64,000 nucleotides of DNA from Escherichia phage KKP 3954. The notes under the pieces were generated by a model, which was not told the DNA's origin, did not search any database, and saw only the letters and a list, made by a program, of their open reading frames with translations. The stretch lies in the sequence record OR067838.1, one strand, 5' to 3'. The position numbers were made by a program, and so were the translations under genes. Numbering within the stretch: position 1 is the first letter of the stretch; each line of letters opens with the position of its first letter. Positions 3,429-61,000 of this stretch are shown piece after piece.

Positions 3429-3642
3429 GCTGTATACGCTCGACAATAATAATAGTTTGCGGGATCTCGTTTTCTACTACTAACAAGGCTTTTTTCTGTG
3501 TGATAGATATTTTAACACGTTGTAAAGTAGCGGTAAAATCTTTCATTTCATTATGCGCGGATTTAGTACAATGCCAGATCTCAGGTTTACCAACTTGCAA
3601 GCCGCGTAAAAATTCCGTTTTACCTGTCTTATTCGTGATCAT
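3406..3642 (-). CDS. Hypothetical early protein
   Basis: ORF track 3406..3651; ATG at 3642. Confidence 0.5.
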   Translation of the reverse strand: MITNKTGKTEFLRGLQVGKPEIWHCTKSAHNEMKDFTATLQRVKISITQKKALLVVENEIPQTIIIVERIQHENRNHY

Positions 3643-6850: not shown

Positions 6851-7063
6851 CTACCATTTGGTATACCCTGTCTCAATGTTAGTAAACACTGTTATCCCGT
6901 CCTGGCGTTCACTCATTAACATACAAGGCGCTAACATCCTTTCTACTGCCTTGCACTCATTATAAGCGGCGGTGATGTCTCCTGCTGCCTTGTCTTCTGT
7001 GGTGAATGTATCGTTTACGTAAACCTGACCAGCAACAACGGCGACAATAGCAAAAGTAATCAT
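6851..7063 (-). CDS. Hypothetical early protein (hydrophobic N-terminus)
   Basis: ORF track; ATG 7063; promoter with -10 inside the hairpin loop at 7085-7135. Confidence 0.55.
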   Translation of the reverse strand: MITFAIVAVVAGQVYVNDTFTTEDKAAGDITAAYNECKAVERMLAPCMLMSERQDGITVFTNIETGYTKW

Positions 7064-9434: not shown

Positions 9435-10254
9435 TCAAAGACTATTTTCAAAGTTTTCTAGGGCGATCCTTTTTTCTTCCTCTGTCGGCTGATAATCAGG
9501 AAAAGCATCAACACACAACAACGGCGGGATCTCTTCATACTCTTCCTCTTCCGTTGTCTCCTCGTCTTCCTCCTGGGCTATGGCTGCAATTTTGGCTAAT
9601 TTTCTCTCCGCTTGAATCAGTTTACCATCAAATACGTTTTTTGCCATGTTGTAAGCGGTCCAGGTGATGCGCTTACTTTCTAGTGCTTCATCAAGCGCCG
9701 CTATCTTGCTGGGGTATTCATCCAGGACACGAAAAGCCGGATCAACTTTGTATACAAGGGATTATCTTTCGCACCGTCGCTCGCATCTTCCGCACTGGAT
9801 AAATCAGCGTTACCATTTGCCAGCCAACCAGGGCGCACATAACGCGCTTTTACGTTGCCGTTACTACGTGCTAATCTGTTACCTATTTGCTCCCCGCTAT
9901 AGCCCGTGGATTCATCGACAAGATAATCAGGAATGATGCGCGGATCATCTGCTTCATGTTTTACCCAAGACTGGATCACATATTCGCGGCCCATATTAAC
10001 CACCTTTTTTTCAACAATCGGCATACTTTAAAAAGACTTGCTGAATCCTTGCAAGGGTAGAAAGATGTACGATAGTCACGTACGCCAACCTTGCGGATCT
10101 CGATGTTCTCGCATGTTGTTTGATCAAAAATATTTATTTCATCACGCCCCCTTATATAAACATAATGGGGATGTATTAACGCATACTTTGCTAATCTGTA
10201 AAAAGCGTTATCCTTGAACGCGATCACGTGACCTTTTAATTTGATGTAAAACAT
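9435..10254 (-). CDS. Hypothetical early protein with acidic C-terminal domain; one gene split into three track ORFs (9976..10254, 9701..10024, 9435..9647) by two apparent 1-nt deletions (T7 run 10005-10011; GTATAC 9750-9755)
   Basis: Only the first ORF has promoter, leader and SD (ATG 10254); the internal ATGs lack an SD; reading continues without stops after a -1 shift at each junction; C-terminus is Glu/Asp-rich. Confidence 0.5.
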
Positions 10255-14311: not shown

Positions 14312-15453
14312 TTAGAACACGCTACCCAGTGTGGTGGAACGTTGTGTTACAGGCTCCAGCACCACTCGCAGAGTGTTACCTGGTGTAGTGCTCGTCACCA
14401 GAATCTTACCACCTTCAATCAGATCACAAGTTAGACCATCACCCGTTGCACATAGATCAATATGTGGATCACCATCTTCGTCCAGGATAACATAACTGTT
14501 GGTTTCCATTGCTTCCACTTCATCATCTTTCAAACTTTGTAGATAGATGTTCAGGGAACAAGCGCCCGACAAAAACTTAGTAGGGGTGAAGTCGTGCCAG
14601 TTATTGATCCAATTCACCTTCAAGGTTTTGCCATTAGCTACGATAGAAGCCACATTCCATTTAGCATCGTTCCCTAAAGAAATACCCATCATTTCAAGAC
14701 ATTCTTTAAAAGTCATTTTTGGATAGAAATTCAATTCTTCTACAATGCCTTGAATAACATCGAAAGACAACTCTGTGCTAACATCCCATAAACGTTGGAA
14801 GTTATCTACGTGCTTTTTATTTACCAAGTTCTTATCCAAGTAATCTAACATAGTTTCACTAGACAGTTTATCGTAATTGAAACTGTAGTAGATACGACTA
14901 GGACGGTTTACAAAATATTCCGAGATATAGCCACTATTTTTAGTGAGGATGTAAAGTTTATTTCCACTTCCTGTTCCATCCAACAAGGTCAACAGTGCTT
15001 CCTGATCTTCTTTCTTAGCGTATACACTTTATCAAACTCGTCAAATAAAACAACAGCACGATCTGTAATTTTACTCATAAATTCTAAGAATCCAGCATCT
15101 GTGTAAGGCTGTGTCACCAAAATGGTTGGAATACCTAAACCTTCTGTGGACATTAGGGACATGCTAATCAGTTTAGCTAACATCGTCTTACCACTGCCCT
15201 TTGTCCCTGTCAGTAACACCCCAGTATTTTTACCTTCTTTACTACGACGAGCAAATGTTTTAATAACATGTGCGGCGCGGTCTTTAGTTTCCCCATAAAG
15301 AGTGTTCGGAAGAGAGAAACTTTCGCCACGCACTAAAGAGTAGTTACCGTGCGGATCGCAGTTGACAACCCAAACTCCAGCAGGAAGTTTATTAGCTTCA
15401 ACACCATATTCCTTATTTACAACAGCCACATCTCCAAAAATAGTGTATTTCAT
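14312..15453 (-). CDS. P-loop NTPase (AAA-type ATPase); split into track ORFs 14989..15507 and 14312..14992 by an apparent 1-nt deletion at GTATAC 15020-15025
   Basis: Walker A GTKGSGKT and Walker B VVLFDEFD; start at ATG 15453 with SD AAGGAG; downstream ORF begins on TTG without an SD and continues in the -1 frame. Confidence 0.55.
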
Positions 15454-15478
15454 TAAAACGTTTCTCCTTTTAAAATAA

Positions 15479-15811
15479 TTACTGTAAACTTTGCAGTTTT
15501 TTCTCACTCTTAATATTCTTGATTAATAAATACTCTCCTCCAGGTGCATCTTTGTATTGTTTAATAGCTACTATTTCATTTTTGCAAGTAGCTATAATCG
15601 AATAAAAAGGACGTTCCGTGTTATCTTCTTTTCCTGTATATGCCTCAACATCTTTGCACTCTTCTAGAACACCATTCCCAGGTGTATAGTAAAACTTGTT
15701 GCCTGTGATCACAACATCTTTACCAATATCCGTTTTAACTGCTACAAATTTTTGAGCGTAAGTGGTGAAGCTTACGGTAGCCAGCAATGTGGCTAAGATT
15801 AATTTTTTCAT
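15479..15811 (-). CDS. Small secreted protein (signal peptide)
   Basis: ORF track 15479..15841; ATG 15811; N-terminus MKKLILATLLATVSFTTYA. Confidence 0.55.
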   Translation of the reverse strand: MKKLILATLLATVSFTTYAQKFVAVKTDIGKDVVITGNKFYYTPGNGVLEECKDVEAYTGKEDNTERPFYSIIATCKNEIVAIKQYKDAPGGEYLLIKNIKSEKKLQSLQ

Positions 15812-19873: not shown

Positions 19874-20076
19874 ATGTTAGTCAGTGAAATACTACCTGAC
19901 TCTAATGGTAATCAGATCACTGTTGATTGGTTTCCTGGTATTAATGGTATACACTAGATCTAACTGCTGAATGGTCTGGTGATATTTATGGAGAAGGTGT
20001 ATTATCATTGTCTACAGAACAAATGATCATCCTTCGTGACTTCTTAATTAGTTTAGATCTAGGAGAAAACAAATGA
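19874..20076 (+). CDS. Small hypothetical protein, apparently interrupted by a 1-nt deletion at GTATAC 19947-19952
   Basis: ATG 19874 with SD AGGAGAG; frame stops at 19955 while the -1 frame runs to a TGA overlapping the next ATG; break window 19945-19954. Confidence 0.4.
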
Positions 20077-21869: not shown

Positions 21870-22412
21870 GTGGACATAAAAGAACAACTGTTTTATGCTT
21901 ACTACGCAGGTTGCATAGATTGTGATGGGTCTATTATAAGCAGAAACAGGGAGACTTCAGACTCCTACACAGTAAACCTTACACAACACGAGAGATCGGC
22001 AGAAGAAATGACCGATTTGGCTAAAGAGTTGGAAAGTTATGGATATACTGTCTCTTTCACATCGCGCGTAGCTTGGGCTGAAAAATATGATAATTTGATG
22101 TATAATATCAATGTTAGCAGCAGAGAAAGTGTGATAAGATTGCTTGAGAATTTAATCCCTTATCTCCGTTTCAAAAAAGAGAAAGCGGAAGAGGCTGTCA
22201 GATTGCTAAAAGTGATGGATGTAAAGCAACCTATCATGTATGGTGTGGATGATAGACAAGCTAAACGCCGCTACTGGACAGAGGAAGAAGACCAGATTCT
22301 TGAAAAGTTAAATAGTGAAGGGTATAGTCATGCAGGGATTGGTAAGGTTCTAAACAGATCTCGCAACTCTGTATCCCACAGGTTAATGCGAAATAAGGTC
22401 AACACAAAATAA
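21870..22412 (+). CDS. LAGLIDADG-family homing endonuclease-like protein with C-terminal helix-turn-helix-like region
   Basis: Single motif YAGCIDCDGSI close to the I-CreI-type LAGLIDADG block; C-terminal WTEEEDQIL...GIGKVLNRSRNSV resembles an HTH; GTG start. Confidence 0.55.
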   Translation: MDIKEQLFYAYYAGCIDCDGSIISRNRETSDSYTVNLTQHERSAEEMTDLAKELESYGYTVSFTSRVAWAEKYDNLMYNINVSSRESVIRLLENLIPYLRFKKEKAEEAVRLLKVMDVKQPIMYGVDDRQAKRRYWTEEEDQILEKLNSEGYSHAGIGKVLNRSRNSVSHRLMRNKVNTK

Positions 22413-30990: not shown

Positions 30991-31782
30991 ATGACACTGG
31001 AAACTGCTACTTTTGATATCAAAGATTATTCAAAATTGAAATTTGGTAGTAACCAAGCTGCGCGTCGTATGGGTAAAGAATTGGCACTTCAGTTTTTTGC
31101 TCAAGTGGCAATGAAACATATTGGGGAACAATTTGTTATCATTCCTTCTCCTTATAACCATGTGCATAATGCTGCAACAATGATGACAGATCATTTTATT
31201 AATTACTTTAATATGTTGCAAGCACAATATGATCAAGGTCGTTCAGCAGAACTGGATATTATTCATCGTAAAGTTAGCTATATCAACGATTATGGTTTCT
31301 TGGATAAAGCTAGTCGTAAGAAACTTATTGATGGGGATACATTCTACTGCAACAAAGAATTCTGGGGTGATAAGAAGCTTGTGTTCATTGATGATGTAAA
31401 TATCACTGGAACTCATGAAGACAAACTAATTGAGATTCTTGATGAAAATCAAGTTAAAAATGATGTTTACTTCTTGTATTTTGCAAAATATGAAGGTAAT
31501 CAAGCAGATACCGAAGCTAAGCTGAATTTTAACTATATTAATACACCAGAAGCGTTTGTTAAAATGATTAATGAAGAACGTGATGCACAGTGTCTTGTTC
31601 GTCCTATTAAGTATCTTATGGGCCAAAATCATGAAGACTTCAAAATCATTCTTAGCCAATTGCCACACTACTATGTGGAACAACTTTTCTTCGGCTGTTT
31701 AGCTGAAGGCTACAATCGAATTGCAAAGTATGCTGAAAACTTTGAGTTCTTGGATCGCTACACAAAACAACATATTCTGTAA
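30991..31782 (+). CDS. Phosphoribosyltransferase (PRTase type I)-like protein
   Basis: PRPP-binding motif KKLVFIDDVNITGTHEDKL; start ATG 30991 or TTG 30976. Confidence 0.5.
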   Translation: MTLETATFDIKDYSKLKFGSNQAARRMGKELALQFFAQVAMKHIGEQFVIIPSPYNHVHNAATMMTDHFINYFNMLQAQYDQGRSAELDIIHRKVSYINDYGFLDKASRKKLIDGDTFYCNKEFWGDKKLVFIDDVNITGTHEDKLIEILDENQVKNDVYFLYFAKYEGNQADTEAKLNFNYINTPEAFVKMINEERDAQCLVRPIKYLMGQNHEDFKIILSQLPHYYVEQLFFGCLAEGYNRIAKYAENFEFLDRYTKQHIL

Positions 31783-38282: not shown

Positions 38283-39079
38283 ATGTCCGAGAAAATCAGC
38301 CTGAAAAAACGTCAAGAAAACCTTGCTTTCTCTCTGAAAAAGAATAAGAACCTGAACGAAGGTAAGATTGTTCTTCGTGTAGCATGTGCTCTAGATATTT
38401 CTGGTAGTATGCATGGTCTATATACTCGTGGGGTAGTGAGTGATTTTGTAGGTAAACTGCTTCCTTTTGGTATGCTGTTCGACGATAATGAACAAATTGA
38501 CATGTGGGCCTTCAATACGAGTTCTCAAGAGCTTACTCCAGCAACAGCAGACGTTTACGATGACTACGTTGGTAAATGTATGCGTAATGTTCGTATCGGA
38601 GGTGGAACAAATTACGCCCCTGTAATGGCAGATATCTACGATGAGTATTTTGGCACTGTTACCAAATATGTTACCACTAAACAAGTGGTATACAAGAGGA
38701 GGCTCCAAAGAAAGGCTTCTTTAATCGTCTGCTTGGTAAAACTGAAACAGTATCGGTAGAGCGTGAAAAAGTTGTAGCTGTATCTGAACCAGGTGCTGAT
38801 GTTACTCCTGGCGTTGTATTCTTCCAGACAGACGGTGAGAATGGTGATCCTAGTGCTGTTCGTCGTCTTATTGAAGAGAATAAGAATAAGCCTATCTATT
38901 GGTTCATGGTTGGCGTTGGTAATGAGAAGTTCAGCTTCCTGAAAGAACTGGCAAATGCTTATGACAATGTTGGTTTTATTGGCATTAAAGATTTAGACTT
39001 GACAGATTCAGAGCTTTATGACAAACTCTTATCTGAAGAGTTCGGAGAGTGGGTTGTTAAAGTAGGTGCTAAAAAATGA
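38283..39079 (+). CDS. von Willebrand factor A (vWA) domain protein, TerY-like; split by an apparent 1-nt deletion at GTATAC 38688-38693
   Basis: MIDAS motif DISGSM in the N-terminal part (track ORF 38283..38759); vWA C-terminal half (VVFFQTDGENGD...WFMVGVGNEKF) continues in the -1 frame to a stop at 39077-39079. Confidence 0.6.
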
Positions 39080-41514: not shown

Positions 41515-42078
41515 ATGATTTATTATATTACTCCCTATCTGACAGGAAATATCGGCAAGGCTATCAATGAAGCTATTGCCGTTCTTCCAGATGATAGTTG
41601 GGTGTGTTTAAGAGATACCGATACGATGTTCCTCCTACCTGATCAACCATCTATGCTTGAAGAGCTTGTTATGTCAAACCCGCCTTTTGATGTAATAGGT
41701 GCAACTTGTAACAGGTTAGGTAGTGGTTATCAGCTTTTCTCTAACCAAATTAACGATGATCCAGATATTCTAAACCATATAGAATATGCTAAGATTGCAA
41801 GAGAATATCATAAAGTGAGTGTTGAAGAAGTTCCTTTTGGAACACCTCTGGCAGGTTTCTTTTTGCTTTTTAGAAAATCATTGTGGAATGAAATTCCTTT
41901 CGAAGAAAAATCTATCCAATTTGACTTAATTTTCTCTCGCACTTTACATGAAAAAGGAAAGAGGTTAGGATTGATGCGGGGAATGTATCTGTTTCACATT
42001 TACAGATTAGGTCAAACAAATCCTCAACGGTCTATACATCATTTATTACACTGTCACGATCACAGTAAAACTATTTAG
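41515..42078 (+). CDS. Hypothetical protein, possible glycosyltransferase-like
   Basis: ORF track; DTD motif and cluster context only; weak assignment. Confidence 0.35.
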   Translation: MIYYITPYLTGNIGKAINEAIAVLPDDSWVCLRDTDTMFLLPDQPSMLEELVMSNPPFDVIGATCNRLGSGYQLFSNQINDDPDILNHIEYAKIAREYHKVSVEEVPFGTPLAGFFLLFRKSLWNEIPFEEKSIQFDLIFSRTLHEKGKRLGLMRGMYLFHIYRLGQTNPQRSIHHLLHCHDHSKTI

Positions 42079-42086
42079 GAGAGAAA

Positions 42087-42770
42087 ATGGAAAATATTAA
42101 AATCGGAGTGGGTGTTATCACTGTAGGTGTCCGTCCACTTAAAGACTACCTTGTAACAGATCCACATGCAGATTTTCGAGTATTCAACGATCCAGATCGT
42201 AAAGGTGTAGCTTACGCCAGGAATGAACTTATGCACCAGTTTTATGAAGAAGGTTATGATTATTGGTTTATTTTTGACGACGATTGCTACCCAATCATGG
42301 AGGGATGGGAAACATATTTTGTAGATCAAGCTGTCTCTGGAGGATGGGATTTCTTTGGTATGCCGGAGTATTTCAAAGATAAAGTTGTTGGGAGTAAAGG
42401 AGAAGTTATTCTCTGGGAACTTGCAATGTGTCAATTTGCAATGTATTCTCGTGCCGTTGTTGAGAAGATGGGTTATTTCCGCCCTTACACTCACGGCTAT
42501 GGTTTTGAAGATGCTGAATGGGTACACCGTTTGAAAGCTGCTGGTTTGAATCAGGGTATTCAGGCAATACCTTGTCCACTTCGTATCATGGCTTATATCC
42601 ACCCAGACGATGTTTTTGGAAACAATCCTATGCCTTTTGCTAATCTGACAAAAGAAGAGAAAGAAGCTGCTATTGGCATTAACTGGGAAGAATATAAAGC
42701 GTCTTTAGAAGATATTAAAAATGGGAAAATCCGAATTTCTTATGAGGAGGCACTGGCACATGTCAAATAA
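42087..42770 (+). CDS. Glycosyltransferase, GT-A fold (family 2-like)
   Basis: DxD-type motif FIFDDDCYP and GYGFEDAEW block. Confidence 0.55.
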   Translation: MENIKIGVGVITVGVRPLKDYLVTDPHADFRVFNDPDRKGVAYARNELMHQFYEEGYDYWFIFDDDCYPIMEGWETYFVDQAVSGGWDFFGMPEYFKDKVVGSKGEVILWELAMCQFAMYSRAVVEKMGYFRPYTHGYGFEDAEWVHRLKAAGLNQGIQAIPCPLRIMAYIHPDDVFGNNPMPFANLTKEEKEAAIGINWEEYKASLEDIKNGKIRISYEEALAHVK

Positions 42771-43707
42771 AAAATGGACTAAACTGAAAATTGATGCAAA
42801 ACCTCACAGTGGTTGTGATTATCATCGTATTGTTATACCATTTAACAACAATAATTTTCAGCCTAAGAAAGATGTTGTCGTGTTTAACCGTATTCATTCT
42901 AAAGGGGCAGAATATGTTCTGTCCCTGAAACGTCAAGGTGTTAAGATTATTGTAGATTTAGATGATTTCTACCAACTTAATCCAGAACATTATTTAGCAA
43001 GTTTATATGAGTCAAACACTCATGCTATTGTAGCTATGGTTAAGCTTGCCGATGTGGTCATTGTGACTACGGAATATTTGGCATATAAGATCCGTCACTT
43101 AAATAGGAATGTTGTTGTGATCCGAAATGCACTTCCTTTTGATAGCGGACAATTCACTTTGTCAAATGATCGTTCATCCGGTACCCCTGTTGTATGGGCT
43201 GGCGGTGCTAGTCACGAACCCGATTTACGACTAGTCTCTAATACTTTCGATGATGAACTTCTTACTATTGCAGGATATGAAGCATCGCAGAGTATCACGG
43301 GGCAAGAGTGGATTAAGATCCGTAGAAATTTACCAAACGCCAAATATAAAGCTGCTGTAAAAGATTTAGATAATTACATGAGTGTTTACGAAAGTCATGC
43401 TATTGCTATAGCTCCTTTGGTAGACAATGATTTTAATAATTGTAAAAGTAATCTCAAAATCCTTGAAGCTGGGGCAAAAGGTATTCCGATTGTTTGTTCT
43501 AAGGTATTACCTTATTTTAACCCTGTGGATGCTCGCGCTGTTGCTTACGCAGAGAATAAAGCAGAATGGCATTACGAAATTGTTAAACTTCTTCGCAATC
43601 CGAACTATCGGGAAGATCGCGGCTTGTTCTTAGCGGAACATGTTCGAACACATTATAATCTGGCAGATGCAAACGAATTGCGACGCCAGGTTATTGAAAG
43701 CTTGTAG
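42760..43707 (+). CDS. Glycosyltransferase-like protein, tandem paralog A
   Basis: Shares NNCKSNLKILEAGAKGIPIVCS and other blocks with 43715..44659; ATG 42760 with SD GAGGAGG. Confidence 0.5.
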   Translation: MSNKKWTKLKIDAKPHSGCDYHRIVIPFNNNNFQPKKDVVVFNRIHSKGAEYVLSLKRQGVKIIVDLDDFYQLNPEHYLASLYESNTHAIVAMVKLADVVIVTTEYLAYKIRHLNRNVVVIRNALPFDSGQFTLSNDRSSGTPVVWAGGASHEPDLRLVSNTFDDELLTIAGYEASQSITGQEWIKIRRNLPNAKYKAAVKDLDNYMSVYESHAIAIAPLVDNDFNNCKSNLKILEAGAKGIPIVCSKVLPYFNPVDARAVAYAENKAEWHYEIVKLLRNPNYREDRGLFLAEHVRTHYNLADANELRRQVIESL

Positions 43708-43714
43708 GTGAAGT

Positions 43715-44659
43715 ATGGGACAAATAATTCTTGACAATCGTAACGGAATCAATTATAGTGTCTGCGATTTCCATAGGGTAGTGCTGCCTTACTCAAGGCA
43801 GTTCTCTTCACAACCTAAACACAACGTTTTCGTTTTTAACGGAGTGCCAACAAAAGGTAAAGAGGGCTTTTTAGCCCTTAAAAACCTAGGCTTTAAAATG
43901 GTTATGGATTTGGATGACTCTTTAGTTATTCCAAAAGGACACATGTTAGAAGGTATTTTTGAATCCGGTATTCGTGAACATTTAAAATGGTTTTTAGAGC
44001 ACAGTGATCTTGTTACAACTACGACACCTGCCTTGCAAGTTGAACTTTCACAATACAATGATAATGTGCACATAATCCCTAATGGACTTCCTTATGATGA
44101 AGGTCAATTTGTGTTGACCCGTGATCGCTACTCCAAAACTCCATTAGTCTGGGCTGGAAGTGAAACACATAAACAAGATTTGGCTATCTTACCCGATTTT
44201 GGTAAAGATCTTACAATATGTGGTTTTCGTAGGGATTCTGAAGTTTTAAGTAGTCGTGAATGGTCTTTAATCAGAGAAAATGTAGCACCAACTTGTGTTT
44301 ATGAAGGTGTAAGACCATATGCCAACTACATGGAATCTTACGATGGTCATCAAATCAGTCTTGCACCATTGATCGATAACGTGTTTAATAATGCAAAAAG
44401 CAATCTTAAAATTCTTGAGGCAGGTGCTAAGGGTTTACCTTTAATCTGCTCTCCTCGTGAGAATTATCATACACAAGAGTTTAAAGATTTGTTATTCTTT
44501 GCTGAAACACCTTCCGAGTGGAAAGATATTACGGAATACTTATTAAGTGCTCCCGATGTTTGCATGGAGAAAGGATTAGCATTAGCTAAGTATGTCAGGA
44601 CTCATTATCACATTGATGTGTTGAATGAGCGTCGTAGACTTTTATTTGAGGAGCTATAA
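43715..44659 (+). CDS. Glycosyltransferase-like protein, tandem paralog B
   Basis: About 35-40 percent identical to the preceding gene by eye (NNAKSNLKILEAGAKGLPLICS). Confidence 0.5.
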   Translation: MGQIILDNRNGINYSVCDFHRVVLPYSRQFSSQPKHNVFVFNGVPTKGKEGFLALKNLGFKMVMDLDDSLVIPKGHMLEGIFESGIREHLKWFLEHSDLVTTTTPALQVELSQYNDNVHIIPNGLPYDEGQFVLTRDRYSKTPLVWAGSETHKQDLAILPDFGKDLTICGFRRDSEVLSSREWSLIRENVAPTCVYEGVRPYANYMESYDGHQISLAPLIDNVFNNAKSNLKILEAGAKGLPLICSPRENYHTQEFKDLLFFAETPSEWKDITEYLLSAPDVCMEKGLALAKYVRTHYHIDVLNERRRLLFEEL

Positions 44660-44949: not shown

Positions 44950-46728
44950 GTGTCGCACATTATAACTAAATATGGATTTGATGTTGATCTTAGCAAGGAA
45001 GGACATACAGGTTGTCCGCGCTGCATGAAAAATGGCAAGGATCGCTCTCGTAATAACCTGATGGTTTACGGATTAGATTCTAATGGAGAGCATAAAGGTG
45101 CTAAGTGCTTTGCGTGTGAATACACTATTCCTAGCGTAGAATGGTTACGAGAAAATGGTGAAGTTTTAGAAGAAGAGGAGGAGATTGTGGGTTCGGAATT
45201 TAATAAACAGATTCATCGTAAAATTGTTCAAGAAACATCAACCAACCCACGTGGTTATCGAGGCATTAAAGAAAAAGTTTCATCTTTCTATGGTGTTCGT
45301 TATGAATACCGTCAGGAAGGGGATCAGATGGTAGTAGAAAGTTGTTTATATCCGACTACCATCGGTAAAGAATTGGTTGGTTTTAAGCGTCGTATTCATC
45401 CTAAAGATTTCAGTAAACCTATTGGTCAAGTAGGTAAAGATGTAGATCTTTTTGGACAAATTCGTTTTGCAGACCGTTCTCATACTGTTGTAATTACAGG
45501 TGGTGAACACGATGCTCTGGCAGCTTATCAAATGCTATCTGAAAACTTGGACAGTAAATATGAGCTTCCAGCCGTAGTAAGTGGCACAACTGGTGAAACC
45601 AGTATGTATAAACAAGTTCAGGCACAATATCCTTTCTTTGAAAAATTTAAGAAGATTATTGTTTGCATGGATAACGACAAAGCAGGTAATGAGGCATTTG
45701 AAAATATTGTTAAGGTGCTGCCTCGTAACAAAGTCTACCGTATGCAGATGGATCTTAAGGATGCCAATCAGTATCTGGAAGAAGGCCGTGCAAAAGATTT
45801 CGTAAAAGCTTTTTGGAGTGCTCGTCTATACACCCCAGCAGGTGTTTATGCTTCTAATGTCTTGTATGAAGCTGCATTGGAATGCTTGGAATCCAAGATG
45901 ATTACCTTGCCTCCTTTTATGCGTGTTGCTGCAAACATGTTGGGTGGTGGTTTAGTAGAAGAAGAGATTACAGTCATCCTGGCAAAGACCAGTATCGGTA
46001 AAACTTTGATGGTGAACGAGATCACCAAACATATTATTGTTGCACACCCAGAACATACCCTAGGTATTCTGTCCTTGGAAGCGACTTATAAAAAGTATTC
46101 TCGTAACCTGTTATCCTCTTTCCTACACATTCCTCTACACAGGAAAACACCGGAAGAGAAATTTCAAATCTTGGAAGAGAATAAAGAAAAAATCCTAGAT
46201 TTTTACGAAAGAGAAGATGGATCACCACGTTTTTACGTGTGTGATGATCGTGGAGCAGATGTGGAGTCTATCAAAGAAAAAGTTTTGGAGATGATCATCT
46301 ATTTTGGAGTAACAATTCTTGTTATCGACCCTTATTCTGATTTGCTTTCTGGTATGGATGTTCAAGCCCAGGAAGAGTTAGCAACATGGTTGAAGCGAAT
46401 CATGAAAGAGTATGCTATAACTATTATCGTCATCTCACACGTTAAGAAGTCAGCTAATGGTGGCAATGAGCACTTAACAGAGGACGATGCAATGGGTAGT
46501 AGTTTCTTGGCTAAAGGTGCTGGTATTACCTTGGCTTTGGAACGAGATAAGGCTGCTGAAGATCCTGTAGAACGTAATACAACTCATTGCTTTATCCTAA
46601 AAAACCGTGAGTTCTCGGAGACTGGTCCAGCAGGGCAGTTTTACTATGACATTAGAACTGCAACTCTTCACGACAAAGAGCAGTATTTTAACAACCCTGC
46701 TAACTTACCTACGGATAGCAACTACTAA
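44950..46728 (+). CDS. Bifunctional DNA primase-helicase (T7 gp4-like: Zn ribbon, TOPRIM, DnaB-like helicase)
   Basis: CPRC..C..C zinc ribbon, TOPRIM blocks VVITGGEHD and DNDKAG, Walker A AKTSIGKT, Walker B ILVIDPYSD. Confidence 0.8.
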   Translation: MSHIITKYGFDVDLSKEGHTGCPRCMKNGKDRSRNNLMVYGLDSNGEHKGAKCFACEYTIPSVEWLRENGEVLEEEEEIVGSEFNKQIHRKIVQETSTNPRGYRGIKEKVSSFYGVRYEYRQEGDQMVVESCLYPTTIGKELVGFKRRIHPKDFSKPIGQVGKDVDLFGQIRFADRSHTVVITGGEHDALAAYQMLSENLDSKYELPAVVSGTTGETSMYKQVQAQYPFFEKFKKIIVCMDNDKAGNEAFENIVKVLPRNKVYRMQMDLKDANQYLEEGRAKDFVKAFWSARLYTPAGVYASNVLYEAALECLESKMITLPPFMRVAANMLGGGLVEEEITVILAKTSIGKTLMVNEITKHIIVAHPEHTLGILSLEATYKKYSRNLLSSFLHIPLHRKTPEEKFQILEENKEKILDFYEREDGSPRFYVCDDRGADVESIKEKVLEMIIYFGVTILVIDPYSDLLSGMDVQAQEELATWLKRIMKEYAITIIVISHVKKSANGGNEHLTEDDAMGSSFLAKGAGITLALERDKAAEDPVERNTTHCFILKNREFSETGPAGQFYYDIRTATLHDKEQYFNNPANLPTDSNY

Positions 46729-46748
46729 GGGCTTCGGCCCTTTTATTA
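46727..46748 (+). terminator. Rho-independent terminator after the primase-helicase gene
   Basis: AAGGGCTTCGGCCCTT hairpin plus TTTATT. Confidence 0.65.
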
Positions 46749-46758
46749 AAAATACCTG

Positions 46759-46787
46759 TTGACAACTTTGCGGAAGGGACTTATACT
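46759..46787 (+). promoter_or_regulatory. Sigma70-like promoter (TTGACA, 17 nt spacer, TATACT)
   Basis: Hexamers seen directly; -10 context GGGACTTATACT as at 11350-11378. Confidence 0.55.
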
Positions 46788-46820
46788 TGTCTCATCAACC
46801 AAACAAGAGGAGAAGTAAAA

Positions 46821-47252
46821 ATGCGTATGACAATCGATCTGAATGCAAAAGTTAAAGCTGCTGGTGCTCTGGGTGCTGGTGTTATTAAACACAAACAAGC
46901 GTTGGCATTTGCCATCCCACACATGATTGTTGAGGATCATCCTGAAGAGTTTGCTGTAAAAGTTGTTGAGAACAATGTCTCTGTTATTGAACATCTTCCA
47001 ACTGGACGTTCTTACCGTGTTGTTTCTTCTAAAGGTTTTCGTTTCGATGTAAGCCCTTCTTTCACAAAAGGTGCTGGTCGTAGTAAAGTGGGTATTCTTT
47101 CTTACAAATATTATATCGATAAAGTTGCAGATGGTGTTGCATTCTGTCGTGTAAGTGAAGGTAAAGTAGATATCATCTTTAAAAATACCAAAAACATGGT
47201 TATTTCTGATGATGGTAAAGTGGACCTCACTATTGAGTTCGCTAACAACTAA
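46821..47252 (+). CDS. Hypothetical protein
   Basis: ORF track; SD AGAGGAGAAG. Confidence 0.55.
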   Translation: MRMTIDLNAKVKAAGALGAGVIKHKQALAFAIPHMIVEDHPEEFAVKVVENNVSVIEHLPTGRSYRVVSSKGFRFDVSPSFTKGAGRSKVGILSYKYYIDKVADGVAFCRVSEGKVDIIFKNTKNMVISDDGKVDLTIEFANN

Positions 47253-47261
47253 GGAGGACTA

Positions 47262-48056
47262 TTGAGCAAGTTGAACACACTTGATCAATATTACACTAAC
47301 CCCGCTTATGCGGGGTTCTTATGTGATAAGATCAAAGAAATTTTTGGAGAGGAAGCTAACTACGTAGAACCATCTGCGGGAGAAGGAGCTTTCTCTTCTT
47401 GTTTTAAAAACATAACTTCTTTTGATATTGACCCTAAGTTTGAAGATTGTATTGAGGCAGATTTTTTAGCTCAATCTGTTGAGTCTGTTGGTAGTGTAAC
47501 TGCTTTTGTCGGTAATCCTCCATTTGGAAAAAATGCTAGTCTTGCCATTAAATTCTTTAACCATTGTGCTGAAATGCTGGATAACGAAGGTGGTATTTGT
47601 TTTATCTTGCCTCGCACATTTCAAAAAATCTTTTTTGCACACAAACTAAATCCCCATATGCATCTTCTTTACGAAGAAGAATGTCCAAAAGGATCTTTTA
47701 TTCTTCATGGAGAACCTTGGGATGTTCCTTGTGTATTCCAGATATGGATTAAACGCAACGAGAAGCGTTCTCCCGTTGTTTTAGGAGAGAATCGACTATT
47801 CGTATTAGGTAACAGTAAAGACTACGATATAGCCGTTAGGAGAGCGGGAGCAAGTGCAGGTAAAGTGTTATCAGAAGAAGATTCTTTATCTGAAGCATCT
47901 ACCTATTTTTTAAAAGCCTTGACTTCTGATCTTAAAACGCGTATCATTGAGGCTTACCCGTTACTTAAAGCTGAAGCTAGTAAAACTGCGGGAGTAAGAA
48001 GTTTAAGTTTAAAAGAACTTCAGTGGGTTCTGGAGAACATTAGAAAGGAGGAATAG
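47262..48056 (+). CDS. DNA N6-adenine methyltransferase (gamma-class-like)
   Basis: Motif I-like VEPSAGEGAF followed by motif IV GNPPFGKN; TTG start with SD AAGGAGG. Confidence 0.65.
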   Translation: MSKLNTLDQYYTNPAYAGFLCDKIKEIFGEEANYVEPSAGEGAFSSCFKNITSFDIDPKFEDCIEADFLAQSVESVGSVTAFVGNPPFGKNASLAIKFFNHCAEMLDNEGGICFILPRTFQKIFFAHKLNPHMHLLYEEECPKGSFILHGEPWDVPCVFQIWIKRNEKRSPVVLGENRLFVLGNSKDYDIAVRRAGASAGKVLSEEDSLSEASTYFLKALTSDLKTRIIEAYPLLKAEASKTAGVRSLSLKELQWVLENIRKEE

Positions 48057-50653
48057 TGAGTAAGTTTACATGGGATATTGAAGCAAACGGATTGTTGAAT
48101 AATGACACTATTGATTATTTAGCTAGTCCTTATCGTCTCAAAGACACATTTCAAATGCACTGTATTGTCTTAGAGAACCATGAAACAGGAGAAATAGTAG
48201 CTTTCCACGATGGCCCTAAATACATCTTTGATGGGCGTCCTTATGAAGAGTCAGATGGTAAATACACATATGTTCTTAAAGAGTATGTGGCGCAAGATTA
48301 CACACATTTTCAACTAAAAGATTTCCCAGACTTTATTAATCATGAAGGTTATTTTAAAGATAAGCCTGAATATCTGGTTGAAATGGCTGTGGCTCACAAC
48401 GGTATCAACTATGACTGGTTGGCTACAAAACTGTTTTATGGTTTAGATTACAGTGTTAAATATAATACGTGGGGCAAAAATAAGGTAAAACTTATTGACT
48501 CCTTGATTTTGAGTAAAGTGTTAAACCCAGATCGAAAGATTGAGGGCAAATCAGGACATAGTTTGGCAGCACTTTCTCGAAAGGCAGGGGGTGATGTAAA
48601 AATAGATTTCCGTAAAGAGATTCCAGAAGAAGATCGATTTAAGACTTTTGCTGCTGATATGCTTTATTACTGTATCTATGACAACAAAGCCAATACGAGC
48701 GTATATAATTACCTTATGGAAGAATGGGGTGATTATGATAAATGGGAAGGTCCATTTGAACTTGAACAACGTGTAGCAGACATTATTACACGCCAGGAAC
48801 ACCGTGGGTTTGCTTTTAACATGAAGCAAGCAGAAGAGAACCTTGCTTTTTTGGATGCAGAAATGGAGCGTCTTCGTTTACTCGTTGAGCCTATTTTGCC
48901 ACCTAAACCAGCAACAAAAGGTTATCTTAAGGCTTTTATTCCACCTAAGTTGCAAATTAAAAAGAACTTAGAGCCAACTAACCATATGATCAATTTTGCT
49001 AAGAAACATGATGGTCATTTGGAAGAGAGGGATGGAGATTGGTGGTTAGTGATGTTGGGGAAAGAATGGAAACTGCCAGTTGCAGCAGATGAGCCTTTGT
49101 GTGATCCTAATATCCCTGCAACATTGAACGATACTACCCATATTAAAAACTGGCTTGTAGGATTAGGTTGGGTACCGTCTGAATATAAAGATAAAGACTT
49201 GACTCTTAAATCTGGCACCAAGATTAAAAAGAGCGAGGAAGAACTTCAGAAAGGTATTCGAGCTTACGTTGAGCAAACTCTATCTTCTAATTTTTGTCAG
49301 GATCGTTGTGATCATCTGGAGTGCACACCGGAAACCTTGGAGAGGAAGATTCAAGAGCGTATAGCAAAAGGTAAAGGTCGCGGTCTTAAAGTATTGACTA
49401 ACCCATGTTTTACCAAAGGTCAGGAAAAAGAAATTTGTCCTAACCTGCAAGCTTTGGGTGAGAAATTTCCTTATGCTACACAGATTGTAGAATACTTAAC
49501 GTATAAACACCGTAGGAACTCTATTTTAGGTGGTGGTGCCGATTGGGAAGAAGACGAAGAAGATCAAGAATACGATAAAGGTTTCTTAGCCGCAGTAAGG
49601 GCGGATGGTCGTATTCCTACCCCAGCCGCTACATGTGATGCTGCAACCTCTCGTATGAAGCATAGATCTGTAGCTAATATTCCTCGTGTCACATCTTTGT
49701 TTGGATGGGAGATGCGTAACTTGTTTGGTGTAGAGGTTCCTAAATACTTCCAGATTGGCTACGACTTCGACTCTTTGGAAGCAAAAATTGAATCACACTA
49801 CTGTTGGCGGTACGAGCCGGAGCCACACGAATATTGTAACGCTCTGTTGTTAGAGAAACCTAACGATGTTCACACAATGATGGCAAAACGTATCACTGAA
49901 ACTATTGGACGTAAATTTGAACGTAGTCCTGCTAAATCTGTTAAGTATGGTATTACCTATGGTGCACAAGCCGACAAGGTTGCTAAAACAATTGGTAGCG
50001 ATAAGTTTACAGGTCAGTTGGTGTTCGATGCTTTCTGGGAAGCTGCCTTCCCACTGGCACGTCTTAAAGAACGTTTAAACGATTTCTGGGTTAAAACTGG
50101 TAAACAATATGTTTTGGGTATTGACGGTCGTAAGGTTCCTACTCGTTCTGCTCACGCGATTCTTAACTCTTTGTTCCAAAGCGGTGGGGTTATCTGTGCT
50201 AAACGTGCAATGGTTATTTATGACGACATGATCGAAGAAGAAGGGCTAAGTGTTGACTTCTTTAAAGATGACTGGAAGAATAAAGACTTCGTGCAACAAA
50301 TGATTGCATACCACGATGAAGCCCAGCTTGAAGTTTCTCGTAACCTTGTAGAATTCAAATGGTTTTCACCTGAATCATTAGGTTGGAAGAAAGTAGACGA
50401 TCCTGAAGAACAAAAGAAAATTGATAAAGAATGCCTTGCTAAAGTCGAAGAATGGAAGCATAATAAGGAAAAAGAGACAGGGCAAATTTGGGCTAACATT
50501 CATGAATCTCCCAAAGGTGGATGGTTTACAGCCTATAGTCGGGCAGGTGAACTTGCTGCTTTAGCTGTTACTAAGGCTGGAGAATTTTACAATCTTAACG
50601 TTCAGCTTACTGCCGGATATGATGTGGGTAATTCTTGGGCGTCCTGTCACTAG
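48056..50653 (+). CDS. DNA polymerase, family A, with N-terminal 3-5 exonuclease domain
   Basis: 865 aa; Exo I WDIEANGL; motif A DFDSLEAKI; motif B RSPAKSVKYGITYG; motif C YHDEAQLE. Confidence 0.85.
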   Translation: MSKFTWDIEANGLLNNDTIDYLASPYRLKDTFQMHCIVLENHETGEIVAFHDGPKYIFDGRPYEESDGKYTYVLKEYVAQDYTHFQLKDFPDFINHEGYFKDKPEYLVEMAVAHNGINYDWLATKLFYGLDYSVKYNTWGKNKVKLIDSLILSKVLNPDRKIEGKSGHSLAALSRKAGGDVKIDFRKEIPEEDRFKTFAADMLYYCIYDNKANTSVYNYLMEEWGDYDKWEGPFELEQRVADIITRQEHRGFAFNMKQAEENLAFLDAEMERLRLLVEPILPPKPATKGYLKAFIPPKLQIKKNLEPTNHMINFAKKHDGHLEERDGDWWLVMLGKEWKLPVAADEPLCDPNIPATLNDTTHIKNWLVGLGWVPSEYKDKDLTLKSGTKIKKSEEELQKGIRAYVEQTLSSNFCQDRCDHLECTPETLERKIQERIAKGKGRGLKVLTNPCFTKGQEKEICPNLQALGEKFPYATQIVEYLTYKHRRNSILGGGADWEEDEEDQEYDKGFLAAVRADGRIPTPAATCDAATSRMKHRSVANIPRVTSLFGWEMRNLFGVEVPKYFQIGYDFDSLEAKIESHYCWRYEPEPHEYCNALLLEKPNDVHTMMAKRITETIGRKFERSPAKSVKYGITYGAQADKVAKTIGSDKFTGQLVFDAFWEAAFPLARLKERLNDFWVKTGKQYVLGIDGRKVPTRSAHAILNSLFQSGGVICAKRAMVIYDDMIEEEGLSVDFFKDDWKNKDFVQQMIAYHDEAQLEVSRNLVEFKWFSPESLGWKKVDDPEEQKKIDKECLAKVEEWKHNKEKETGQIWANIHESPKGGWFTAYSRAGELAALAVTKAGEFYNLNVQLTAGYDVGNSWASCH

Positions 50654-58083: not shown

Positions 58084-61000
58084 TTAGGTTGTTGGCACAT
58101 CTACTACTGGCGTTGGGCGAATAACCGCAGTATTACCTACAGAAACATTACTGGAATCATTAGGTATGGTTTTAATTCTAACTCCAGCACTTGTAGGCGT
58201 TACAATTGGATCTGCAATGTCTATTTTAACTGGGTTAGTCCACGTATCATTATCTTGATAAGGTGCACGAGTAATAACTGTGTCCAAATCTGCTCCACCT
58301 ACGCCAGCACCAGGAATACGGATACGTGTCCCTGCTGACAGAGGGTAATGATACAACCAAGAAGCATTTGTTGCTGTCCCGTTAGGAGTCAAGTTCTGTG
58401 TCAGGAAGGTATCTCCTGCCTGTGTAGCTCGAATACCGAAAGCTGGGATATCTGGAATATATGCCCCACTTGTTGTTACAAGGAAGAACGTATTATCCGC
58501 CTTGACTATCATATCACCTTTGTCAAACTCTTTCCCTGTTGGGAAATGCATTCCATCAATGTTTCGACTAGGATTAGGCTCTAAGTAATAAACTTTGCCC
58601 GTTGTCCCTACAATAGCTCCAATACCACCTGCGATATTGGTATACATATTAGCTTCAACATTACAGTTGACACGATGAATATCCGAGTAACGGCAACGGC
58701 TCCACTGTGGACGACCAGTAACCATCGTCTTGCCATCTGGGTAACAGTTTACGTTAACCATTTCAAGAACAGATTTTTCTCTACGGAAGAATCCATCATA
58801 AAATGTCCCTGGACCAGATTCAGGTTGACCAACACAATCGAAGATATTACAGGTAATGTTAGACATTGAAAGCCAAGAAGCTATACCGAACAACTGCAAT
58901 GCAGCGCAACGAATATTTTCAAAGCTAACTCTGTTTTCATAACCTGGACCAGCGGAAACTCCCGCAAAAACACGCCCAGTTTTGGTGTGAATGTTACGAA
59001 CAGAATAGTTAAAGCATGGATTTGAAGGTCTGCCCTGTGCCGGAACTACCGGATTACCTTCTTCGTCCAGAACTGCGTTAGTTCCCCACTCCAAATAAAT
59101 CATACGGATATTACTTGCAAGTGTGCTACCGTCTGTTTTAGGCTCTCCATAAACACCGTCAATCGTAAAATCTTTACTTCCATACATTACAACTGCGCCA
59201 GTTGCCAAACCTGTCCCAACAGATACAGTCTGGTCTGGATCGCCATGAATGTTTTCGATAGAGATATTACGACCAACTTCTACATGGACAATCTGACGAC
59301 AACGTTTTGCAAAAACGTTACGAATTGTAATATTCTTGCAATATTGATCATCAGGGATTCCGTAACCATATGGTCCTTTACCAGCTACACCGATACCGAT
59401 ACCCCAGTTGGACAGAGGAATAGGAGCGTTAGTCCCATCGATATTAGACAGGTAAATATTCTCAATCACACAACCATCGTCATAATGTTTATTGATGACG
59501 TTCAGTTCTATTGCATCACCTTGCATGTCCATGAAGGTAAGGTTACGGAAGACACCACGTGTTACTGGTTCCCCTGTTCCTTGTTGAAGGATGCCATACA
59601 ACCCGTTTTTAAAAATACAGTTATCAATTTCAAAAATACCTGATATTGGGTTGCCTTGGAATACCAAGCTACCAACTTGACCTGCGCGAGGAGCACCGTC
59701 CCACAAACAATCGAACATGCGCACAGCACCACCCCAATACATAACACGAGAGTTACGGAAAGTTGTGCCTTCTACTGTAGCATTTTGCACACGATAGTCG
59801 CGTTGACCACGGAACACACCCCCACGCAAAGTGATACCTTGAATATCAAAAGAGCTTGTCGTGAAAGTCATATCGCAACCGTAAGCATCGAGAATCTTGC
59901 TTTTCGAAGCTTTTGCTGCTAACAGTGCCGCTTGGAAAGCTGCTTCTGGTGTGGTATATGTTGTTGTGTTGTTAGCAAATTCTGACAAGTAGACAACATC
60001 GAATAAATCGTTGTATGTTCCACCACGAGGGGTTAACAGTCCTTCTGTATTGGTCAGAACCCATGCATTTGGACCTAATCCACCGCTTGTCTCCAATGTA
60101 TCAGAGGCCAAAATACTTTTTGGTAAACTTCCAGCCCAACGATAACGACCAGCACCACGTCCAATCGTCTGATTTTTAGCTGTCAGAGTTACGTTATTAC
60201 CAAAGCTTGTAGGCAAATGAACAAACTGTCCACGTTCAACAGCTAGTGCAGAAAGATCTACAGACCCCCCAGAATAAGTCATTACTCCAGAAACAGACAA
60301 GGATGTTAAAGTTCCTGTGATGTTAGGAGGTAATGTGTAGGAAGACTGTGCTACTGGATCATACAGAGCTTTAATCCCTGTTAACGATTGACCTGCTGTT
60401 GCGTAAGCCACCTCATCATCTAACAAACCATATTTACGAGCAATAGTTTGCAGAGGGACTTTATCCATGCTTTCTGTTAGTTCTTCCGTTTTTGTTTCTA
60501 AACTAACAAGACGGTTCTCTAGATTAGGATCTGTATCTGCTGAAGCTACGATTTTACCAATATAAGCAAAAAGCTTGTTTGGTAGTCCTGTTGCAGGATC
60601 GTGTCCCAAAGGTTCAGATAAGATGATCTTACTATCTTCTATACGGAAAGCTTCTCCCAGAACCTGAATAACACCGTTGATAGTAACAATAGCACTGTCA
60701 AAAATATAAGGAGGACTAATTACTGTTTCATAACCCGTTGCACCAGAATATACCCACGGGGTGACTTCTGTTGCTAATTGTTCTGTTTTCAGTCCCCACA
60801 ATACCCAGTTATTATCCCCTACTGGAGAATACCTTGCATAGGGATTGGGTTTACCAATGTAGCATTAGGAGCATAATAATAACCGCTCAATACCCCATTC
60901 TGGAAATAACGCAGTTGGTTAAAAACCGTTTCATTTGTGCCTTGCGCCCAATCCAATGGACTTTTAAAGAAAAAGTTGTCAACAAGGGCTTTTCTCAGGG

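Follow-up and report, generated by a model that had tools for sequence, protein, structure and literature searches.

A likely orphan DNA adenine methyltransferase gene in a Phapecoctavirus genome and probable long-read errors at GTAC sites

The DNA analyzed here, a stretch of 64,000 nucleotides from Escherichia phage KKP 3954 that we call the window, carries a gene resembling those of adenine methyltransferases together with frame breaks that cluster on the palindrome GTATAC, and this raises the question of what the enzyme acts on and whether it has anything to do with the breaks. An earlier note made from the sequence had proposed that this enzyme, or a host one, methylates GTATAC and thereby perturbs base-calling. 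We favor an explanation in two parts, to which we give a probability of roughly 0.6: the enzyme is an orphan of the gamma class, and the frame breaks are long-read errors at another motif, GTAC, which is modified most likely by the host.

The window belongs to the genome of a phAPEC8-like Phapecoctavirus (Stephanstirmvirinae). It shows about 98% identity to some 64 phage records, and its gene order is that of phAPEC8 and vB_EcoM_DE16 (DE16). The methyltransferase ORF (Table 1) is a genuine gene, with homology far beyond chance. It lies within the replication module, flanked by a primase-helicase gene on one side and the DNA polymerase gene on the other, and its TAG stop codon overlaps the GTG start of the polymerase gene at 48056. 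The gene is already known: its homolog phAPEC8 gp078 (YP_007348556.1), which is found in the same position with a 143-aa ORF and DNA polymerase I as its neighbors, is publicly annotated as a "putative DNA N6-adenine methyltransferase." The window enzyme is identical to the DE16 and DIJ07P1 proteins and one residue apart from the phAPEC8 protein, and it is 99 to 100% identical in about 64 phage records (Phapecoctavirus) and about 54% identical to the rV5-like orthologs (Vequintavirus). Between the window gene and gp078 with its Phapecoctavirus and Vequintavirus orthologs, there is no difference of substance, a putative methyltransferase being encoded in both. A MAG contig (L021) gives a "100%" match at the protein level, while its DNA is only 97.7% identical.

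A search of a large protein collection gave 2465 homologs (best E value of 1e-174), most of them 250 to 290 aa long and mostly unnamed or called "predicted RNA methylase" (JGI). PHROG 5172 matches the enzyme at 1.7e-110, with the entry listed as "unknown function." In an alignment of 67 homologs, conservation extended over the full length of the protein, and the invariant residues were those of motif I, D55, NPPF, and the C-terminal part. The assignment of this ORF to the N6-adenine type of methyltransferases, made in the earlier note from motifs I and IV, is supported; EPSAGEGAF and NPPF lie in invariant columns. The Pfam family of Eco57I methylases (PF07669) matched residues 90 to 130 only, at 15.6 bits (E = 0.017), which is below the gathering threshold of 25.3 bits. 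Searching NCBIfam with the enzyme gave no match, and a Pfam scan of the homologs that carry PF26055 in a precomputed table did not recover PF26055.

The AlphaFold model of the enzyme (pLDDT of 94) has a class I Rossmann fold like that of solved DNA adenine methylases. Its top Foldseek matches in PDB were M.BseCI, the M subunit (HsdM) of the type I system StySJI, M.TaqI, and CamA, with E values of about 1e-7, modest TM-scores of 0.4 to 0.57, and sequence identities of 12 to 20%. The catalytic (D/N)PP(Y/F/W) tetrapeptide of the gamma N6-adenine methylases is present as NPPF, and, in the order typical of the gamma class, motif I precedes motif IV and both precede a conserved C-terminal domain of some 100 aa. 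Common to the enzyme, M.TaqI, M.BseCI, CamA, and the HsdM catalytic domain are the Rossmann fold and the succession of motif I, motif IV (NPPF/Y), and a C-terminal recognition domain. The enzyme differs from this class in its size, with 264 aa against 380 to 550 aa, and in a C-terminal domain that is without a recognizable counterpart.

RNA methylases are not far away in these searches. A profile search of PDB sequences gave only Ta1320 (1.5e-5) and METTL5 (1e-3), tRNA and rRNA methylases came close behind in the Foldseek list, with TrmN and KsgA among the fold matches, and some of the homologs bear the JGI name given above. All of this would fit an RNA methyltransferase (a METTL5-like enzyme making m6A in rRNA) or a protein methyltransferase, with phage or host RNA as the substrate. 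We find such an activity very unlikely, as the matches to Ta1320 and METTL5 (residues 4 to 128) span the shared catalytic domain only, DNA adenine methylases head the fold matches, the phage gene is located in the replication module, and bacterial homologs are paired in an operon with a protein resembling PD-(D/E)XK endonucleases. Taken alone, the sequence and fold data make a DNA substrate likely, though not certain.

The pairing with an endonuclease-like protein was found in a survey of relatives, with one genome per species, that covered 79 loci, 78 of them bacterial. At 17 of the 78 bacterial loci, which include Paracoccaceae, Sphingomonadales, a Verrucomicrobiae genome, and Poseidonibacter, a conserved ORF of 200 to 220 aa lies about 18 nt downstream of the methylase homolog on the same strand; in Poseidonibacter, the pair adjoins a type I HsdM/HsdS pair. 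This partner had no match in Pfam, NCBIfam, or PDB sequences, and every one of its 288 relatives is called "hypothetical." Its model (pLDDT of 94) has a predicted fold matching PD-(D/E)XK restriction endonucleases, and the structural likeness is mostly to endonucleases that cut blunt. The presence of such a partner beside the bacterial homologs suggests that the family descends from a type II restriction-modification cassette, of which it would represent the methylase half, with the phage gene as a presumed orphan copy. An orphan copy of a type II methylase also fits the place of the gene in the replication module. The partner linkage is new evidence by which the assignment as a DNA methylase is strengthened, and we hold it to be highly probable that the ORF encodes a DNA adenine methyltransferase. 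Linkage to a cognate restriction endonuclease is seen for bacterial homologs only, with no endonuclease partner beside the phage gene, so the activity of the phage copy on DNA is presumptive.

The enzyme would accordingly be pictured as a small monomeric SAM-dependent N6-adenine DNA methyltransferase of the gamma class. Its N-terminal Rossmann domain would bind AdoMet via EPSAGxG and D55, the flipped base would be taken into the NPPF pocket, and recognition of the DNA sequence would fall to the conserved C-terminal domain (about 100 aa). Translational coupling to the polymerase gene and the location in the replication module may point to an action on replicating phage DNA.

Table 1. Positions in the window of the methyltransferase gene, its motifs, and the insertions at former GTAC sites
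Feature	Position	Strand	Remarks
Orphan SAM-dependent DNA methyltransferase gene (putative), phAPEC8 gp078 homolog	47262..48056	+	264 aa, TTG start
Ribosome-binding site AAGGAGG (read from sequence)	47251..47257	+	4 nt 5' of the methyltransferase TTG start
Motif I EPSAGEGAF, residues 36-44, AdoMet-binding loop	47367..47393	+	E36, P37, A39, G40, and G42 invariant in the alignment
Motif IV NPPF, residues 85-88, flipped-base catalytic pocket	47514..47525	+	N85, P86, and P87 invariant, F88 nearly so, in the alignment
C-terminal domain, about residues 166-264, presumed target-recognition domain	47757..48053	+	R194, G196, G200, G244, and S247 invariant
GTATAC from GTAC plus 2 bases, at a gene junction	3432..3437		C terminus of a small ORF changed
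GTATAC from GTAC plus 2 bases	6861..6866		C terminus of a small ORF changed
GTATAC from GTAC plus 2 bases	9750..9755		195-aa minus-strand ORF split
GTATAC from GTAC plus 2 bases	15020..15025		ATPase gene (phAPEC8 gp014) split into 172-aa and 226-aa ORFs; insertion also in BI-EHEC
GTATAC from GTAC plus 2 bases	19947..19952		With a second damaged GTAC at 19938, truncates a 79-aa ORF
GTATAC from GTAC plus 2 bases	38688..38693		264-aa ORF (gp063-like) shortened to 158 aa
GAATAC, AA inserted at 60828-60829	60827..60832		1017-aa colanic-acid-degrading tail-fiber gene split into 905-aa and 106-aa ORFs

With regard to the frame breaks, the earlier note was right that they sit on GTATAC: relative to related phages, two-base insertions fall exactly in six GTATAC sites (Table 1), and deleting the inserted TA restores the 397-aa ATPase and ORFs of 264, 195, and 79 aa. 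In a seventh event, the sequence aligned to GAGTACC in phAPEC8 and DE16 (GAGTCCC in PNJ1809-36) reads GAGAATACC at 60828 in the window. GTATAC is also overrepresented, with 26 sites in the window where 11.9 are expected and a count of 26 reached in 0 of 100 shuffles, and both this excess and its coincidence with the breaks speak for a methylated GTATAC. The excess is, however, fully accounted for by shared sites, insertions into GTAC, and substitutions: 12 of the 26 sites are common to relatives, 6 come from insertion of TA into GTAC, 3 (54015, 61157, and 63127) result from an overlapping GTAC in which C became T or G became A, 4 are ordinary substitutions, and 1 is unaligned. Genuine GTATAC is retained in the window (9 of 14) and in BI-EHEC, a second assembly with damaged GTAC sites (9 of 11), as it is in the DE16 control (10 of 12), about as expected for any 6-mer at such divergence, and in phAPEC8 it is not depleted (28 observed against 21.6 expected). 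It is extremely unlikely that the enzyme methylates GTATAC, and the proposal of the earlier note that this is the methylated motif falls away: GTATAC is what a two-base insertion makes of GTAC.

GTAC itself is severely affected in the window. Only 22 of the 71 phAPEC8 GTAC sites that could be aligned are kept; 34 show a change of the outer C to T on either strand, giving ATAC, GTAT, and once ATAT, and 7 carry insertions. Among the 4-mers, GTAC is the only poorly retained one (0.31, where the next lowest is 0.76 and the overall retention is 0.88). In the tail-fiber region, five relatives have 18 to 19 GTAC sites each and the window has 5, and 12 of the 100 changes private to the window fall within GTAC, compared with 0 of the 26 to 61 private changes of each relative. 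The window-private changes in the tail region have a nonsynonymous-to-synonymous ratio of 10:2 in GTAC versus 13:66 elsewhere (Fisher P = 8.6e-6), indicating that the GTAC changes have not been filtered by selection. Among them are Thr>Ile, Thr>Met, and Cys>Tyr replacements in conserved structural proteins, and the change is C>T even at sites that a synonymous inner substitution would have abolished.

One other Phapecoctavirus record, BI-EHEC (OL505078), shows the same syndrome, with 58 of 141 GTAC sites kept genome-wide and 12 of 41 in the region that was analyzed first. Its changed sites read ATAC (30) or GTAT (27), with GTATAC, GCATAC, GTATGC, AATAC, and GTATC in addition. The ranking of flanking bases is alike in the window and in BI-EHEC, AGTAC being the worst and GGTAC the best context, and four sites that read ATAC in BI-EHEC read GTAT in the window. 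The BI-EHEC assembly is Nanopore only, made with Guppy 4.0.11 HAC, Flye, and Medaka (PMC8686590). A milder form of the syndrome is seen in the rV5-like phage vB_Eco_Alma (OV101294), an assembly with many homopolymer indels and split genes in which a 1-base insertion at GTACAC splits the thymidylate synthase gene. Insertions at GTACA(C) recur in the window, BI-EHEC, and Alma, and eight other assemblies keep 69 to 89% of their GTAC sites and have 0 insertions.

Errors of this kind have been described for Nanopore sequencing. The passages on modified motifs in Lohde et al. 2024 (PMC11610573) and Chiou et al. 2023 (PMC10687267) report that modification motifs on which the base-caller was not trained give strand-specific transitions clustered on the motif, and their motif-confined, strand-dependent purine/purine or pyrimidine/pyrimidine miscalls are the same as those seen here. 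The errors in those passages survive polishing and differ between isolates, in which they also resemble the errors of the window, but what is described there are substitutions, while the window, BI-EHEC, and Alma have 1- to 2-base insertions at GTACA(C) as well. With the same syndrome in a Nanopore-only assembly, the errors in the window look like base-calling artifacts at modified GTAC, and we consider that the GTAC changes in the window are very probably artifacts. The idea in the earlier note that DNA modification perturbs base-calling thus gives the best reading of the breaks, though with GTAC as the affected motif. The frame breaks would be consensus errors of a presumably long-read-only assembly, the GTAC modification being absent from the training of the base-caller; depending on the strand that was read, a T called in place of the outer C would yield GTAT or ATAC, and a consensus that merges GTAT and ATAC reads could write GTATAC.

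If the changes were instead real mutations, they would have arisen under strong GTAC-specific restriction, either as scars of a G^TAC cut that was filled in and religated or by deamination of a methylated C. A filled-in G^TAC cut yields exactly GTATAC, the whole lineage strongly avoids GTAC, and one insertion is common to the window and BI-EHEC. We nevertheless judge real mutation to be highly improbable. The lack of a selection filter is apparent both from the 10:2 ratio and from frameshifts in the ATPase and 1017-aa tail-fiber genes, the changes are always C>T despite the available synonymous inner change, and the window and BI-EHEC disagree at the four sites mentioned above. In addition, GAATAC, GTATGC, AATAC, and GATAC variants are incompatible with fill-in, and the quality of the assemblies points the same way, BI-EHEC being Nanopore only and Alma carrying homopolymer indels and split genes, in contrast to the insertion-free eight. 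The restriction-scar idea was rejected on account of the variant products and the absence of selection.

We prefer, then, to read the GTAC changes as base-calling artifacts at a modified motif, and the question becomes which enzyme modifies it. The methyltransferase gene is found in all assemblies that show the syndrome, namely, the window, BI-EHEC, and Alma. The most informative control is DW-EC, a Phapecoctavirus that came from the same laboratory as BI-EHEC and went through the same Nanopore pipeline (PMC8752677). This phage encodes an intact copy of the enzyme in which only two nonconserved residues differ (T6I and L136F), yet 22 of its 26 GTAC sites are retained and insertions are absent (a single control genome, 40.8 kb). 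Presence of the enzyme is not accompanied by GTAC-specific Nanopore errors in DW-EC, so the enzyme is not sufficient for the syndrome and is probably not the GTAC modifier. What does differ is the propagation host, which was an EHEC strain for BI-EHEC and an ETEC strain for DW-EC. The modifier is most likely a putative methyltransferase of the propagation host (host-controlled modification), and the most economical explanation would be that some E. coli strains have a GTAC-specific system. The earlier note had left room for either this enzyme or a host one as the cause of the frame breaks; DW-EC contradicts the former and leaves the host as the likelier source. Our literature search found nothing on GTAC in connection with rV5 or RsaI, on vB_Eco_Alma, or on ETEC-TG.

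RsaI cuts GT^AC, and M.CviQI, M.PabI, and M.HpyAXII are GTAC-specific adenine methylases (GTm6AC). As adenine methylases of a 4-base palindrome, the latter three would be in keeping with the size of the phage enzyme and with the motif at which the assemblies are damaged, but the endonuclease-like partner of the family resembles PD-(D/E)XK enzymes and not the half-pipe fold of PabI, and the DW-EC control argues against a GTAC target. Could the phage enzyme still methylate GTAC to GTm6AC and cause the base-calling errors, with DW-EC as an exception due to, e.g., poor expression or a different library preparation? The NPPF motif, the conserved target-recognition domain, and the type II descent would allow it, the gene is in all syndrome assemblies, and the partner resembles mostly blunt cutters, as RsaI is. 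We think this unlikely, since DW-EC has a near-identical intact enzyme and no syndrome under the same pipeline, it is C and not A that is miscalled, and GTAC is the most avoided 4-mer, which is unexpected under self-protection. That GTAC is the target of this enzyme seems quite unlikely to us. Comparing site avoidance between bacterial loci that have the partner and those that lack it revealed nothing about the recognition sequence of the cassette (for GTAC, O/E of 0.76 versus 0.81). There is a similarly slim chance that the enzyme is a GTAC modifier (GTm6AC) active only under some infection conditions; if so, Phapecoctavirus and Vequintavirus would both avoid and conditionally mask GTAC, and a new GTAC-specific type II restriction-modification family would be formed by the enzyme and the PD-(D/E)XK partner found beside its bacterial relatives.

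Other phage methyltransferases were also considered. Two more methyltransferase-like core genes of phAPEC8 lie outside the window, gp194 with C5-cytosine motifs and gp177 with NPPF, and one of the core enzymes might modify GTAC, with gp194, a small C5-cytosine-like protein that would produce GTA(m5C), as the main candidate. It has the motifs FDGSG, PPC, and ENP and matches phrog_757 at 1.8e-84, and the C-as-T miscalls fall at exactly the C where 5-methylcytosine would be expected to cause them. Its involvement is nonetheless highly doubtful, as DW-EC is of the same genus, presumably with the same core genes, and has no errors; gp194 has no match in Pfam or NCBIfam and only about 25 aa at the position of the target-recognition domain; and phAPEC8 is without a deamination signature (O/E of 1.02 for GTAT/ATAC). 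As for accessory methyltransferases, the DNA unique to BI-EHEC contains no ORF with methyltransferase motifs, the unique segments of the window encode a LAGLIDADG-like homing endonuclease together with small unknown proteins, and the extra C5-methylase of Alma has no Phapecoctavirus among its best 60 matches. An accessory methyltransferase may lie elsewhere in the genome, the window being 64 kb of about 150 kb. A host methyltransferase thus remains our preferred source of the modification.

The avoidance of GTAC extends beyond the affected assemblies. In the cleanly sequenced phAPEC8, it is the most avoided of the 256 4-mers, with an O/E of 0.35, followed by GGCC, CCGG, and CTAG, and it is also the lowest motif in the rV5-like phage slur16 (O/E of 0.52). 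Judged by this composition, the depletion in phAPEC8 looks like restriction avoidance, a further point in favor of a host source of the modification. Decay of GTAC through deamination was rejected as its cause, because GTAT and ATAC show no excess.

In conclusion, the apparent pseudogenes of the window (the ATPase, the 1017-aa tail fiber, and several small ORFs) are probably spurious, as probably are about 34 of its substitutions, and the GTAC sites need to be corrected before annotation, phylogeny, or host-range inference from this assembly. At least one public Nanopore-only record (BI-EHEC, OL505078) is affected by the syndrome, and a second one (vB_Eco_Alma, OV101294) probably is as well. 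For the enzyme, the link to a PD-(D/E)XK partner gives a direct route to its specificity. Phage DNA appears to be GTAC modified after growth on some hosts, and this apparent modification, together with the avoidance of GTAC in broad-host-range coliphages, suggests that GTAC-specific restriction-modification exists in E. coli populations, where it would be a barrier to biocontrol phages.

The error syndrome at GTAC, in which sites are changed by C>T substitutions or by insertions of 1 to 2 bases and which we read as long-read base-calling errors at modified GTAC, also affects public records. It was found, together with numerous split genes, in the deposited genomes of the Nanopore-only assembly BI-EHEC (OL505078) and the rV5-like phage vB_Eco_Alma (OV101294), and only 58 of 141 GTAC sites are retained in BI-EHEC. 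The small indels that are left over in the window (see the table) are mostly intergenic or at gene ends, and several lie within short homopolymer runs; the one at 30996 falls within a 268-aa ORF, some 20 nt past its start.

Besides the putative N6-adenine methyltransferase, phAPEC8 has two more small methyltransferase-like core genes, gp194 and gp177, both outside the window, and searches against Pfam and NCBIfam gave no match for either. The additional C5-cytosine methyltransferase of vB_Eco_Alma was found in only four rV5-like records and not in slur16. The genome that carries the row of glycosyltransferase-annotated genes also encodes dTDP-rhamnose synthesis (phAPEC8 gp166-169, outside the window).

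Features by position
Feature	Location	Strand	Length	Remarks
Four glycosyltransferase-annotated genes in a row	window 41515-44659	+		just upstream of primase-helicase gene
Partner protein of methylase homologues	L058 4791-5447; L072 4800-5456; L007 8805-9404			examples among the bacterial loci
gp194	phAPEC8 NC_020079 26117-26800		227 aa	C5-cytosine motifs; target-recognition region almost missing
gp177	phAPEC8 NC_020079 33211-33720		169 aa	NPPF motif
Additional C5-cytosine methyltransferase gene	L100 (vB_Eco_Alma) 14647-15501		284 aa	adjoins HNH endonuclease gene
Leftover indels vs phAPEC8 and/or DE16	window 15504, 22421, 22780, 30996, 31796, 33589, 36968, 50652, 53214		1-2 bases	
ORF	window 21870-22412	+	180 aa	LAGLIDADG-like motif (YYAGCIDCDGSI); helix-turn-helix-like C-terminal region

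The window's 180-aa ORF was not found in any relative compared, and its LAGLIDADG-like motif and helix-turn-helix-like C-terminal region point to a probable insertion of a homing endonuclease. In anhysbys, EF1-1, and vB_EcoM_01, the match to window positions 46000-50000 is about 735 bases longer and split in two pieces, which suggests an insertion in or near the polymerase region (48056-50653), possibly an intron or a homing-endonuclease gene, that the window itself does not have.

Immediately downstream of bacterial methylase homologues is an unannotated conserved protein of 200 to 220 aa, belonging to a family of 288 members, every one of which is named hypothetical. Its predicted fold resembles that of PD-(D/E)XK restriction endonucleases, and the family is probably an uncharacterised group of type II restriction enzymes.

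The under-representation of GTAC concerns the whole window and also the phAPEC8 loci L002, L004, L005, and L020. GTAC has the lowest observed/expected ratio (O/E) of all 256 tetranucleotides in the cleanly sequenced phAPEC8 (0.35), followed by GGCC (0.36), CCGG (0.44), and CTAG (0.52), and its ratio is likewise the lowest in the rV5-like phage slur16 (0.52). This scarcity suggests that 4-base palindromes have been under restriction pressure over the long term.
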